Below are positions 1 to 4,505 of a stretch of 64,000 nucleotides of DNA, piece after piece; within the stretch, counting starts at the first letter, position 1; each line of letters starts with the position of its first letter. A program made the translations under genes and the position numbers. The notes beneath the pieces are model-generated. The model ran no database searches. It had not been told where the DNA came from and was given only the letters and a program-made list of their open reading frames with translations. The DNA comes from Escherichia coli (GTDB lineage: Bacteria > Pseudomonadota > Gammaproteobacteria > Enterobacterales > Enterobacteriaceae), in NCBI RefSeq assembly GCF_022846255.1, contig NZ_AP025682.1. The stretch is one strand, 5' to 3'.

Positions 1-134
1 GATGGTACTGGCAACGTTGCCGGGCTAAATATCTCTGTTGCAACCGGCGTTTTGCTTGGTGAATGGTGGCGTCAGAATAAAGCCTGATAAATCAGCCGGG
101 TGGCAACGCTGCCATCCGGCGTTTTCCTGCAAAT

Positions 135-824
135 TTACTCACTTTCTGCCGGTAATACTGGCATCCAGTCAATCGGTTTCTCGCCACGTTGTTCCAGCCA
201 CTGATTTGCCAGCACAAAATGGTTGCAGCCAAAGAACCCACGATGCGCAGAAAGCGGTGATGGATGCGGCGCTTTCAGTATGTGATGGCGTTGCTTATCA
301 ATAATCGCCCCTTTCTTTTGCGCATGTGAGCCCCACAACAAAAACACCACGCCTTCGCGGTGCTGGTTAATCAGGCTGATTACTTTATCGGTGAAGGTCT
401 CCCAGCCGAGGCTGGCGTGGGAATGCGCCTGACCTGCGCGTACCGTCAACACAGTATTGAGTAGCAGAACGCCCTGACGCGCCCAGCTTTCAAGATAACC
501 ATGATTAGGGCGGGTGAAACCGGGAATAGTATTTTCCAGCTCTTTATACATATTCAGCAGTGACGGCGGTGTCGCAATGCCGGGGCGAACGGAAAATGCC
601 AGACCATGCGCCTGTCCCGGTCCGTGATAAGGATCCTGGCCGAGAATCACCACTTTAACGTCACCCAACTCTGTAAAGCGGAACGCGTTAAAGACATCTT
701 TTTGTGGCGGATAGATAGTGACGCCGGACTGCCGCTCGCTGGCGACGGTCTGTAGGGTATTAAGAAAATAGGGTTGCTGCTTCTCTTCAGCCAGCACATC
801 ATGCCAGGTTAATTCGTTAGCCAT
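135..824 (-). CDS. ung: uracil-DNA glycosylase
   Basis: 229-aa ORF starting [20 protein letters not shown], recognised as E. coli Ung; conserved K-12 neighbourhood. Confidence 0.95.
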
Positions 825-954
825 CTCGCTCTCCTGCGAATCTTCAATCCGCCTAGCTTAACTGCTTCTTTCTACAGAACAAAATCATGCTCATTTTATA
901 GACAAAAAGACATGCAAAAAAATGTAAATTGGTAAAATTTCACACCTGCATAAG

Positions 955-968
955 TTGATGTAAAACAA
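955..968. promoter_or_regulatory. distal FNR-like site TTGAT-N4-AACAA upstream of grcA
   Basis: One mismatch to the FNR consensus; centre exactly 53 bp upstream of the proximal site, matching the known two-site grcA (yfiD) promoter layout. Confidence 0.5.
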
Positions 969-1007
969 TAAAATCCATTTGTGACCACATTCGATATGTG
1001 GTATTTA

Positions 1008-1021
1008 TTGATTTAAATCAA
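1008..1021. promoter_or_regulatory. proximal FNR site TTGAT-TTAA-ATCAA upstream of grcA
   Basis: Perfect FNR consensus palindrome about 115 bp upstream of the grcA ATG. Confidence 0.65.
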
Positions 1022-1128
1022 AGAATCAAGGGTGTTTGAGGAGTATATATACACTCAAGCAACAATGGTTTTACCAATTGGCCGCGACAGGCTGAACAAA
1101 TCAAATAATTTTGCCGGGGAGGCATCAC

Positions 1129-1512
1129 ATGATTACAGGTATCCAGATTACTAAAGCCGCTAATGACGATCTGCTGAACTCTTTCTGGCTGCTGGACAGC
1201 GAAAAAGGCGAAGCGCGTTGCATCGTTGCGAAAGCAGGTTTTGCAGAAGACGAAGTGGTTGCAGTAAGCAAACTGGGTGACATTGAGTACCGTGAAGTTC
1301 CAGTAGAAGTGAAACCAGAAGTTCGCGTTGAAGGTGGTCAACACCTGAACGTAAACGTTCTGCGTCGTGAAACTCTGGAGGATGCAGTTAAGCATCCGGA
1401 AAAATATCCGCAGCTGACCATCCGTGTATCCGGTTATGCAGTTCGCTTTAACTCTCTGACTCCGGAACAGCAGCGCGACGTTATCGCTCGTACCTTTACT
1501 GAAAGCCTGTAA
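1129..1512 (+). CDS. grcA: autonomous glycyl radical cofactor GrcA (YfiD)
   Basis: 127 aa from the internal ATG ([16 protein letters not shown]...[29 protein letters not shown]); GGGAGG Shine-Dalgarno 7 nt upstream; the ORF track start at 1111 is TTG. Confidence 0.95.
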
Positions 1513-1533
1513 GGCTTAAGTAGCAAGTTACTA

Positions 1534-1564
1534 AGCGGAAGAGGGCGACCTCTTCCGCTTTTTT
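1534..1564 (+). terminator. rho-independent terminator after grcA
   Basis: Stem AGCGGAAGAGG / CCTCTTCCGCT, loop GCGA, followed by T5. Confidence 0.65.
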
Positions 1565-1566
1565 CA

Positions 1567-2154
1567 TTAATAGAAAATGCGTACCGCGCAATAGACCAGC
1601 AGCAGCGCGAGCACGATATTTAACTGGCGACCATACTGGCGAAACAATCGCTGAAACAGGTGCCCCGCCAGCGCCCAGCACACATTGCCAAACGTCCCAA
1701 TCATCGCCAGCAAAACGCTGACGCCAATTATCCAGCTTAGCGCCTGCGTTTGCGGCAGGACAAACGTCGACAGTGCTGTAATGCCATACAAAATGATTTT
1801 GACGTTCACAAACTGCAAAGCAAAGCTGGCCCAAAAACTGATTGGTTTTGTCTGAAGCCCATCTTCCTTTGTTGGACTGGTAGCGATTTTCCACGCCAGC
1901 CAGACAATATATGCCGCCCCCGCCCAACTCAACAGATGCACTGCTGCCGGGTCGATAACAGCCAGTGAAAACGAAATTCCCGCGCATAGCAACATGACGA
2001 TTAAAAATCCCAGACTCATCCCTGCCAGCACGCGAGTACTCTGACGAAATCCGTGCGTTGTAGCTGAGCTAAGGGCGAGAATATTGTTCGGTCCTGGCGT
2101 CATGGCGGTAATCAGGGTGTAAGTCCAAAAAGCACTTAAAAGGGTCGGTGTCAC
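1567..2154 (-). CDS. eamB: cysteine/O-acetylserine exporter (LysE/RhtB family)
   Basis: 195-aa hydrophobic ORF at the conserved position between grcA and yfiE. Confidence 0.9.
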   Translation of the reverse strand: MTPTLLSAFWTYTLITAMTPGPNNILALSSATTHGFRQSTRVLAGMSLGFLIVMLLCAGISFSLAVIDPAAVHLLSWAGAAYIVWLAWKIATSPTKEDGLQTKPISFWASFALQFVNVKIILYGITALSTFVLPQTQALSWIIGVSVLLAMIGTFGNVCWALAGHLFQRLFRQYGRQLNIVLALLLVYCAVRIFY

Positions 2155-2256
2155 TTGTTATCTCCTCTGTTTTGGTAGACAGTACCCGACACGGAACATT
2201 TAAAAAAATGAATGTTTTTACATTCTAAATTCGATATTTTCGATAGGTTTGGGGTT

Positions 2257-3138
2257 ATGGATCTGCGCCGTTTTATTACACTTAAAACCGTGGTGGAAGA
2301 GGGTTCCTTTTTGCGAGCTTCGCAAAAATTGTGCTGTACACAATCGACGGTGACTTTTCATATTCAGCAGCTTGAGCAGGAGTTCTCGGTACAATTGTTT
2401 GAGAAAATTGGTCGACGAATGTGCCTTACCCGCGAAGGAAAAAAGTTGCTGCCGCACATCTATGAACTTACCCGAGTGATGGATACGCTTCGTGAGGCTG
2501 CGAAAAAAGAGTCGGATCCGGACGGGGAACTACGCGTTGTTTCAGGCGAAACGTTGCTCTCTTACCGAATGCCGCAGGTGTTGCAGCGTTTTCGGCAACG
2601 CGCTCCAAAAGTGCGTTTATCGTTGCAGTCGCTGAACTGTTACGTGATCCGTGATGCGCTACTGAATGATGAGGCCGATGTCGGGGTTTTTTATCGCGTA
2701 GGGAATGATAATGCTCTGAACCGGCGAGAGTTGGGTGAACAATCGCTGGTGCTGGTGGCTTCACCGCAAATTGCAGATGTCGATTTTACTGAGCCGGGAA
2801 GACATAACGCCTGTAGTTTTATTATCAATGAACCGCAATGTGTCTTCCGCCAGATATTTGAGAGCACGCTGCGCCAGCGACGGATCACGGTGGAAAACAC
2901 CATTGAGCTTATAAGTATCGAAAGCATCAAGCGTTGTGTCGCGGCAAATATCGGGGTCAGTTACCTGCCGCGCTTTACAGTGGTAAATGAACTTGCGAGT
3001 GGCGAATTAATCGAATTGCCTTTTGGCGAACAGTCGCAGACGATTACGGCAATGTGCGCTCACCATGCCGGAAAAGCGGTTAGCCCGGCGATGCACATTT
3101 TTATTCAGTGTGTTGAAGAGTGTTTTTTGCCGGGATAA
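2257..3138 (+). CDS. yfiE: LysR-family transcriptional regulator
   Basis: 293 aa from the internal ATG (MDLRRFITLKTVVEEGSF...), N-terminal helix-turn-helix; conserved synteny. Confidence 0.85.
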   Translation: MDLRRFITLKTVVEEGSFLRASQKLCCTQSTVTFHIQQLEQEFSVQLFEKIGRRMCLTREGKKLLPHIYELTRVMDTLREAAKKESDPDGELRVVSGETLLSYRMPQVLQRFRQRAPKVRLSLQSLNCYVIRDALLNDEADVGVFYRVGNDNALNRRELGEQSLVLVASPQIADVDFTEPGRHNACSFIINEPQCVFRQIFESTLRQRRITVENTIELISIESIKRCVAANIGVSYLPRFTVVNELASGELIELPFGEQSQTITAMCAHHAGKAVSPAMHIFIQCVEECFLPG

Positions 3139-3170
3139 AAATAATGCCGGGCTTAAACCCGGCATTGAGA

Positions 3171-4505
3171 TTACTCTTCTGTCGTTTGCGGTGGCACGCC
3201 CGTTCCGCTCGGTTTACGGCGCTTACCAATATTTTTGGTGTCGCGATGGCGTTTTTTCACCCGCGGCTTATCTTTCTCTTTAGCTTTTTTCTTCTCGGCG
3301 CGTTTAGCCAGTACTTTCTTCGATGGCTTGCCGGTCTGCTTCTCGCTTGGCGCACGCGTTTTCGGGCGTAACTCATCAATTACACGAGCTTTAATTGGCT
3401 CTTCAATATAGCGACCAACTTTGCCCAGCAGCAGATGGTCATGGGCTTCTACCAGCGAAATTGCGGTGCCTTTACGACCGGCGCGCGCGGTACGTCCGAT
3501 ACGGTGCAAATAAGTATCGCCACTGCGCGGCATATCGAAGTTAAAGACGTGGCTGACGTCAGGAATGTCGATACCGCGCGCGGCAACATCGGTTGCAACC
3601 AGTACGTTTACGCGACCTTCGGTCAAACGCTTGATCGCTTCGTTACGCTTGCCCTGTACCATCTCACCTTCGAGATAGCAGTTGTTGATGCCCGCTTCGC
3701 GCAGCCAGTTTGCCAGCTCATGCACACGCTCACGCTTACGCACAAACACAATTGAGCGGGTCGCTTCCGGCTGTTTTAACAGGTGCACCAGCAATGCGGT
3801 TTTATGTTCCAGGTCATCGGCGCGGTAATACCACTGATGAATTTTTTTGCGCTCACGGGTGGACGGATTGGCAGAAACCTCCACCGGATCTTCCAGCAGA
3901 CGCTCGGCAAAGTCCTGAATCGCATCGCCTTCCAGCGTTGCCGAAAAGAGCAGGGTCTGTTTACGCCAGCGCGTTTCGCCAGCAATATGTTCGATATCCT
4001 GAGCGAAGCCCATATCCAGCATACGGTCTGCTTCGTCGAGGATCAGCGTTTCAACCGCGCGGCAATCGAAGTTCTCTTCTTTTATGTATTGCAGCAGACG
4101 TCCGGTCGTGGCGACCACAATGTCCTGGTTTTCGCTGAACACTTCTGCGTGGTTCATATAGGCCACGCCGCCGGTGATGGTGGCGATATCCAGATGCGTA
4201 TGTTTCGCCAGTTCGCGGGCATGATCGGCCACCTGCATCGCCAGCTCGCGAGTTGGGGTGAGGATCAAAATACGCGGCGGACCGGATTTCTTACGTGGGA
4301 AATCGAGCAGGTGCTGCAACGCTGGCAGCAGATACGCCGCCGTTTTACCGGTGCCTGTCGGCGCAGAACCGAGTACATCACGGCCATCGAGCGCAGGCGG
4401 AATGGCGGCAGCCTGAATGGCGGTCGGGCGAGTGAAACCTTTATCCTGGAGGGCTTCCAGCAGGCTTTCGTCGAGTTCAAGTTCGGAAAAAGTCGTTACA
4501 GTCAT
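3171..4505 (-). CDS. srmB: ATP-dependent DEAD-box RNA helicase SrmB
   Basis: 444 aa; APTGTGKT Walker A, DEAD box ([14 protein letters not shown]), basic C-terminal tail. Confidence 0.95.

Follow-up and report, generated by a model that had tools for sequence, protein, structure and literature searches.

The region described here is very probably the E. coli grcA (yfiD) promoter, with its published two-site FNR architecture and, in the spacer between the two sites, an inverted repeat that has no regulator of its own. It lies within the window, i.e. the whole stretch of 64,000 nucleotides (64 kb) of E. coli DNA that was analyzed. The architecture as such is already known, not new, and may be taken as functional on the strength of the literature: what has been re-identified is a textbook complex promoter, whose activation and damping by a single oxygen sensor let expression peak at low oxygen. 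This is helpful for the annotation of the window, though not a novelty. The comparative data lend modest added support to the published model, as spacing and imperfection are held in 61 species, while the DNA in between is free to vary. What is gained for the repeat is a negative result, useful in itself: the labels ArcA, PdhR and terminator should all be avoided when it is annotated.

The grcA locus and its promoter elements

Gene content of positions 1-3500 of the window (ung, grcA, eamB, yfiE and srmB) follows the E. coli order. The divergent upstream gene, ung, recognized both as an open reading frame and in the RefSeq annotation, occupies 135-824 on the minus strand; the grcA coding sequence, at 1129-1512 on the plus strand, encodes a protein of 127 aa, 100% identical to the GrcA of both E. 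coli and E. albertii. A 306-bp query, corresponding to the ung-grcA intergenic region, found one match each in 5,425 of the 5,426 complete E. coli genomes, and all these matches adjoin a RefSeq-annotated grcA; the window and these genomes have orthologous ung-grcA intergenic regions.

Two FNR-type sites are found in this region. FNR I, TTGATTTAAATCAA, at 1008-1021, is a perfect instance of the TTGAT-N4-ATCAA consensus, centered on 1014.5; FNR II, TTGATGTAAAACAA, at 955-968, has one mismatch and is centered on 961.5, so that 53 bp separate the two centers. The tandem pair reported in the preliminary description, one site perfect and the other with a single mismatch, is therefore found exactly where it had been placed. 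FNR I is the sole perfect consensus in the 64-kb window, where 0.17 would be expected by chance, and five sites with at most one mismatch are present, as compared to 2.55 expected. Such counts alone are unremarkable: what is non-random is that a single promoter holds two of these sites with a 53-bp separation.

Positions relative to the transcription start were derived from published data. Park et al. 2013 report a yfiD ArcA site at -10/+22, corresponding to MG1655 2714555..2714524 (PMC3798270, Tables S4 and S7). The sequence of this site is the reverse complement of window 1045-1076, MG1655 positions being converted as 2,715,600 minus the window position; it follows that +1 is window 1055, on the plus strand, and that the FNR centers fall at -40.5 and -93.5. 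In agreement with this start, a yfiD FNR site at -40.5 is listed by Myers et al. 2013 as an activator site, with a ChIP-seq peak at MG1655 2,714,605 (PMC3688515). The latter position is window 995, between the two FNR sites. The title of the 1998 paper by Green, Baldwin and Richardson reportedly places a yfiD FNR site at -93.5. Although +1 was carried over from K-12 by way of two secondary sources, probably of one shared origin, the mapped start puts both sites at their published functional positions, and the earlier proposal that they represent the known yfiD/grcA pair, for which non-functional positions would have been fatal, is borne out.

Other elements of the promoter lie downstream of the pair. 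GTATATA, at 1043-1049 on the plus strand, would be the -10 region, judging from its position relative to +1 at 1055, and its TATATA is strongly conserved across 55 species. ArcA direct-repeat elements (-10/+22) span 1045-1076 on the minus strand, on the evidence of both published tables (PMC3798270, Tables S3, S4 and S7) and a matrix scan: a position weight matrix trained on 114 of the boxes in Park 2013, the grcA box itself not being included, gives its best two scores within 825-1130 at 1059-1076 (10.3 bits) and 1048-1065 (10.2 bits). An ArcA box consists of two direct repeats of TGTTA at an 11-bp distance. A PdhR box, AATTGGTaaaACCAtTg on the minus strand, occupies 1064-1080, i.e. +10..+26; in genomic SELEX, the grcA/ung spacer is among the strongest PdhR peaks, with the box at MG1655 2714529 (PMC7660256), which is window 1071. 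The GGTTTTACC contained in this box is conserved across 55 species. This PdhR box and the spacer repeat upstream of it belong to one promoter region and are 62 bp apart.

The 306 bp between ung and grcA are 95.4% identical in the window and in K-12. Shared without change are the locus, both 14-bp FNR sites, the 53-bp spacing, the -10 region, the boxes for ArcA and PdhR and the 5' UTR in its entirety; the differences amount to 14 substitutions, which form two clusters, at 898-912 and 981-1003. They affect the spacer repeat, which is perfect in this strain (ACCACAT/ATGTGGT, 7/7) and reads ACCATAC/GTGTGGT (6/7) in K-12, as well as the T-tract adjoining FNR I, ATTTA in this strain and TTTTA in K-12.

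Operation and conservation of the FNR pair

According to the published model, when oxygen falls an FNR dimer would occupy the consensus site at -40.5 (1008-1021) and activate RNA polymerase in the class II mode; under full anaerobiosis, with active FNR abundant, a second dimer would fill the weaker, down-regulating site at -93.5 (955-968) and activation would be damped. Since filling of the -93.5 site damps activation anaerobically, expression would peak under microaerobic conditions. PdhR (+10..+26) and ArcA (-10..+22) would act downstream of the FNR sites, and not between them.

Suppression of activation by the upstream FNR at yfiD is stated in the relevant passages of two papers (PMC3445967; PMC11264516), and the down-regulating role of FNR II is credited to Green 1998 and Marshall 2001, as these are recounted in PMC3445967, PMC10208419 and PMC11264516. 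This behavior was reproduced in a 2023 engineering study: the wild-type yfiD promoter was weak in full anaerobiosis and is described as more active microaerobically, and mutation of FNR II resulted in the strongest anaerobic output among the 15 promoters tested (PMC10208419). The FNR sites are identical in K-12 and in this strain, the K-12 ChIP-seq and FNR II mutation results being taken from the literature.

The arrangement is similar to that of tandem CRP/FNR promoters, where a far-upstream dimer of the CRP family also lowers activity (Lee & Busby 2012, PMC3445967; Barnard, Green & Busby 2003); there, lowering by the upstream dimer is exerted via the AR1 face, with the proximal dimer located downstream (PMC3445967). 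The likeness is not complete: repression at CC(-122.5)CC(-61.5) proceeds via contact with the alpha C-terminal domain, whereas at yfiD, according to the same authors, this domain is not involved (PMC3445967), a statement for which the passage concerned cites Marshall 2001.

To look at conservation, a GrcA scan was carried out on one genome per species, and yielded 80 loci. Two FNR-like sites are kept in 61 Enterobacterales species, 53 bp apart in 55 of them and 52 bp apart in the other 6, and in all 61 the pair is found at the same distance from grcA. FNR I matches the consensus perfectly in 35 of the 61 species; FNR II never does, having one mismatch in 48 and two in 13, with AACAA or AACAT in place of ATCAA as the usual defect. 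Such a constantly imperfect sequence fits a deliberately weak site.

At closer range, an alignment was made of this window, nine other E. coli alleles and E. albertii: both FNR sites are identical in all 11 sequences, and none of their 28 columns varies among the 10 E. coli alleles. Across 55 species, information per column is high at both FNR sites, at the -10 region and at the PdhR box; in most of the spacer it is close to zero. In Enterobacter/Lelliottia, an apparent loss of some 6 bp on the upstream side of the repeat is offset by an apparent gain of some 6 bp on its downstream side, with the 53 bp preserved. As the 53-bp spacing and the imperfection of FNR II are kept while the spacer diverges, what selection maintains is both the distance between the sites and the weakness of FNR II, as the published microaerobic model requires.

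The inverted repeat within the spacer

The 7-bp inverted repeat which the preliminary description had noticed between the FNR sites, ACCACAT-TCGAT-ATGTGGT, is indeed present at 984-1002 (-71..-53, centered on -62), with arms complementary at 7 out of 7 positions. By itself it does not stand out statistically: a match with at most two mismatches turns up in 23 of 100 shuffled versions of the window, and for the looser 6-N7-6 form 2.06 occurrences are expected by chance in the window. No second copy of the motif was found in the 64 kb. The 9-mer ATTCGATAT, shared by the repeat loop and a region upstream of yfiE, is also within chance, as 8 of 100 shuffles give at least two copies.

The scans for ArcA and PdhR that had been suggested for 984-1002 were both negative, and the repeat accordingly keeps its status of an element of unassigned function. 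The best ArcA score overlapping the repeat is -3.8 bits, as compared to a minimum of 9.5 for real boxes with the 114-box matrix. For PdhR, a member of the GntR family with operator AATTGGT-N3-ACCAATT, the likeness consists in the ACCA/TGGT of the repeat arms, the core of GntR/FadR-type half-sites; in the operator, however, TGGT-N3-ACCA faces inward, whereas the half-sites of the repeat point outward, at a separation of 11 bp (ACCA-N11-TGGT), and the SELEX-supported box is instead the one at 1064-1080. Other candidates fared no better. Judged by eye, a CRP site (TGTGA-N6-TCACA) would have 7 of its 10 core bases here and 5 of 10 in K-12; no FNR site with at most one mismatch overlaps the repeat; and the G-N13-C core of Fis sites, with its A/T-rich center, does not occur over 984-1002.

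Within E. coli, the repeat is variable. Among the 10 E. coli alleles, 5 of its 19 columns vary; when flanks are included (979-1007), the figure is 10 of 29, as compared to 0 of 28 in the FNR sites and to about 10% of the columns elsewhere in the alignment (Fisher p = 0.0013). Invariant positions are ACCA (984-987), A989, T991, GAT (993-995) and GTGGT (998-1002), while the innermost pair may be T-A, C-G, C-A or A-G.

Haplotypes were counted as exact 41-nt matches in the 5,425 E. coli genomes; the seven counted cover 4,678 genomes (86%), and the other 747 carry different ones. The sequence of this window, GTG followed by ACCACAT-TCGAT-ATGTGGT, occurs in 82 genomes, and a second perfect form, GCG followed by ACCACAC-TTGAT-GTGTGGT, in 46: a 7/7 repeat is thus a rare allele, with 128 of the 5,425 genomes counted (2.4%). 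Mismatches at the innermost pair are C-A in GTG followed by ACCACAC-TTGAT-ATGTGGT (753 genomes), and A-G in ACCACAA-TCGAT-GTGTGGT, preceded by ACG in 1,243 genomes and by GCG in 500. In the remaining two haplotypes an arm is interrupted: ACCATAC-TTGAT-GTGTGGT follows GCG, as in K-12, in 1,543 genomes and GCA in 511, together 38% of E. coli genomes. As a feature of the promoter, the repeat is therefore upheld for this strain, its perfect form being a minority allele of the lineage rather than a fixed one.

Beyond E. coli, the left arm is lost in E. albertii (GATAATG). Citrobacter has ACCAC-N9-GTGGT, in register with E. coli, and Enterobacter/Lelliottia has ACCACA-N7-TGTGGT, 6 bp farther upstream. 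Of 41 Enterobacteriaceae spacers, which come from related species, 20 have arms of 5 bp or longer, 9 of 6 bp or longer and 4 of 7 bp or longer, where shuffles give 6.0, 1.5 and 0.3; CCAY...RTGG occurs in 24, as compared to 0.2 in shuffles, again in related and not independent species. Outside Enterobacteriaceae (Yersinia, Serratia, Dickeya, Pectobacterium, Erwinia and Hafnia) the repeat is absent and the FNR pair is kept. By these comparisons, the repeat is a polymorphic, lineage-restricted feature.

Possible roles of the repeat

The repeat (-71..-53) sits in a 39-bp spacer, in which selection would keep length and not sequence, and it most likely has no regulator of its own, being spacer DNA with a conserved flank proximal to polymerase or FNR. 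The flank concerned is the inner one of FNR I, TGGTATTTA (TGGTTTTTA in most strains), at 999-1007: it overlaps the right arm of the repeat, whose TGG is part of it, and across 41 Enterobacteriaceae its information content is the highest in the spacer. Between genera, spacer conservation is strongest at GTGTGGTTTTTA, directly adjoining FNR I. The right arm would thus belong to the conserved TGGTTTTTA block that abuts FNR I, at the place where the alpha C-terminal domain of RNA polymerase is expected to dock. For CRP, Fe-BABE cleavage locates this domain 18-24 bp from the center of the site (PMC3445967); by analogy, beside FNR I it would sit at about -59 to -64.5, inside the repeat. As the domain is cited as uninvolved in down-regulation, docking would explain the position only, and not the repression.

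The inner flanks also take part in a larger symmetry. The inner flank of FNR II, TAAAATCCA at 969-977, mirrors that of FNR I, so that 955-977 (FNR II and TAAAATCCA) and 999-1021 (TGGTATTTA and FNR I) form an inverted pair, 83% complementary over 23 nt, with its dyad at 988, i.e. -67, the exact midpoint of the FNR sites. The nine flank bases are complementary at 7 positions here, 8 in K-12 and 6-8 in Citrobacter. In 62 sequences, mean complementarity is 4.32 out of 9 for the inner flanks, 2.29 for the outer flanks and 3.05-3.82 for controls; the symmetry fades outside Enterobacteriaceae. These mirrored 23-bp elements could reflect a symmetric FNR-DNA-FNR complex, in which the inner flanks are contacted by protein. 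The conserved ACCA/TGGT is compatible with protein contact, and equally with each of the two blocks serving a neighbor.

A further dimeric transcription factor of Enterobacteriaceae is a less probable, indeed doubtful, explanation. The repeat, with core ACCA-N11-TGGT or ACCACA-N7-TGTGGT, would be the operator of this putative factor, bound at about -62 between the FNR dimers, where it might add an input to grcA (e.g. an acid or metabolite response) or modulate the contact of the FNR dimers. A center at -62 is the classical position of class I activators in promoters of the CRP family. Conserved half-sites around a variable center are the trace expected of a dimeric DNA-binding protein, and this is what is seen, both in the invariance of the outer ACCA and GTGGT in the 10 E. 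coli alleles and in the recurrence of the half-sites in other genera: Enterobacter/Lelliottia has them at the same spacing, Citrobacter as ACCAC-N9-GTGGT, and the bases in the center are unrelated. The enrichment of inverted-repeat arms in the 41 spacers of related species points in the same direction, as does a pairing potential that derives from conserved column composition, and not from covariation, a pattern typical of a protein site rather than of a hairpin.

On the other hand, the repeat matches no ArcA, PdhR, CRP, FNR or Fis motif (CRP and FNR by eye), and its half-sites, although like the TGGT/ACCA of the GntR family, are everted. The motif has no second copy in the window, the left arm is lost in E. 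albertii, an arm is interrupted in more than a third of E. coli genomes, K-12 included, and the repeat disappears outside Enterobacteriaceae, where the FNR pair persists. The 6-bp displacement seen in Enterobacter, which amounts to half a helical turn, would also be hard to reconcile with a factor obliged to face FNR or polymerase. Finally, in the papers covered by the analysis, the only regulators named for the grcA promoter are FNR, ArcA, PdhR, Fis and CRP, the last one via RegulonDB-derived lists; a Fis site and a second PdhR site are reported for it. Were such a regulator to exist, at about -62 it would tune the microaerobic peak of grcA, and the E. coli allelic series (perfect, mismatched at the innermost pair, interrupted arm) would represent natural variation in its input.

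Formation of a hairpin, either as RNA, terminating a short plus-strand transcript begun upstream of FNR II, or as a DNA cruciform or quasi-palindrome, is very improbable. As in a Rho-independent terminator, a short stem-loop is followed by a T-rich stretch on the plus strand, and a terminator scan flags 984-1002 followed by ATTTATTGAT; the K-12 allele folds with -10.0 kcal/mol on the plus strand (z = -3.97), followed by UUUUUAUU, and with -3.9 on the minus strand. Inspection of the sequence reveals a possible extended -10, TGGTAAAAT, upstream at 930-938 on the plus strand. Repeat and flanks (979-1007) are a substitution hot spot, a cluster which template-switch mutations would explain in the cruciform or quasi-palindrome version, and the states of the innermost pair in E. 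coli (C-G, C-A, T-A and A-G) might trace a compensatory path or a templated correction.

Against a terminator, the repeat lies upstream of the sole mapped start, and is devoid of covariation and strand asymmetry. The covariation score is 0.185, as compared to 0.190 in shuffles, 304 of 500 of which score at least as high. In an ungapped alignment of 35 sequences, 78.8% of the cells pair, as compared to 78.0% in shuffles that preserve the columns; column conservation keeps the outer four pairs intact, and the inner three fail to hold. Across 42 Enterobacteriaceae-like spacers, z-scores of folding are equal on the two strands (-1.43 and -1.45), and the plus-strand bias of the K-12 allele is thus not general. 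Mismatched intermediates (C-A in 753 genomes, A-G in 1,743) are far more common than the 128 perfect forms, which indicates that pairing is not under selection. The stem is short, 7 pairs with 3 G-C; no sigma-70 promoter was found by a scan of 780-1600, and no upstream plus-strand promoter is known; and an Rfam search of 780-1600 gave no family match.

The hairpin owed its initial appeal to the T-A to C-G change between the window and K-12, which seemed compensatory, to a G-U pair possible on the plus strand only, and to the U-tract. Once more alleles were considered, lack of covariation and of strand asymmetry, and mismatched intermediates as the common states, led to the rejection of a selected hairpin or terminator, which we regard as most unlikely. 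Terminator-like hits in the region are two, close to the mean of 0.9 in shuffles, and the hit at 1533-1560 is the genuine terminator of grcA.

Symmetry of the FNR pair and of the core promoter

The two FNR sites of the grcA promoter, the weaker FNR II (955-968, at -93.5) and the perfect FNR I (1008-1021, at -40.5), are part of a 23-nt imperfect inverted repeat, whose arms lie at 955-977 and 999-1021 and in which FNR II followed by TAAAATCCA mirrors TGGTATTTA followed by FNR I. The dyad falls at 988, corresponding to -67 and to the midpoint between the two sites, and the inner flanks match at 7 of 9 positions in the window, versus 8 of 9 in K-12.

The exact 53-bp distance between the sites is preserved in the Enterobacter/Lelliottia group (L006, L017, L020, L029 and L031 in our set of grcA loci, one genome per species). 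Compared with E. coli, the spacer of this group looks as if it had lost about 6 bp on the upstream side of the ACCACA...TGTGGT repeat and acquired about 6 bp, TGGTGT-like, on the downstream side.

The 9-mer ATTCGATAT, found in the loop of the spacer repeat (989-997), recurs at 2229-2237, just 5' of the LysR-type gene yfiE. With 0.46 copies expected, 8 of 100 shuffles reached two, and the second copy is therefore probably due to chance.

Further symmetries are found closer to the start site (+1, 1055). ATCAA occurs twice within 1008-1029, at 1017-1021 and, within the -35 region, at 1025-1029, so that TTGATT (1008-1013) has an additional complement, AATCAA (1024-1029); AGAATC is moderately conserved across species. 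The -10 region and the start site are spanned by a near-palindrome, GAGTATATATACACTC (1041-1056), with arms of 11 nt, 91% complementary, which overlaps the ArcA repeats (1045-1076).

Conserved and variable segments upstream of FNR II

An A/T-rich element, AAAAAGTTGAAAATTTACAAAAATAATTT, is strongly conserved in most Enterobacterales, 30-60 bp 5' of FNR II (loci L004-L081, for example L078 and L056), a position corresponding to about 905-935 in the window. Its core, TTGAAAATTTACAA, is FNR-like (TTGA-N6-ACAA, with 2-3 mismatches) and begins 43-44 bp upstream of FNR II in the Enterobacterales loci; it would represent a third, putative site near -137. In Escherichia the A/T-rich element is missing, and the sequence found at the equivalent place, AATGTAAATTGGTAAAATTTCACA, includes a PdhR-like half-site, AATTGGT.

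Substitutions also cluster at 898-914 in the ung-grcA spacer, and this is the most polymorphic part of the intergenic region: across 10 E. coli alleles, 10 of its 17 columns are variable, the window carrying ATAGACAAAAAGACATG and K-12 TTAGACTTAAACGAGTG. The intergenic allele of the window strain is uncommon: among 5,425 complete genomes of E. coli, only 50 match it at 99% identity or more over 306 bp; the closest match is strain AR_0013 (99.7%), while K-12 is 95.4% identical over the same region.

Layout in Pasteurellaceae

The Pasteurellaceae loci (L043-L073) differ from the Enterobacterales in the layout of the region 90-150 bp 5' of grcA. A pair of FNR-like sites is present there at a spacing of 42-44 bp, the perfect one being usually the upstream one, and is followed downstream by a conserved palindrome, TTTGA-N5-TCAAA, and by a conserved, extended -10-like motif, TGATAAAAT.
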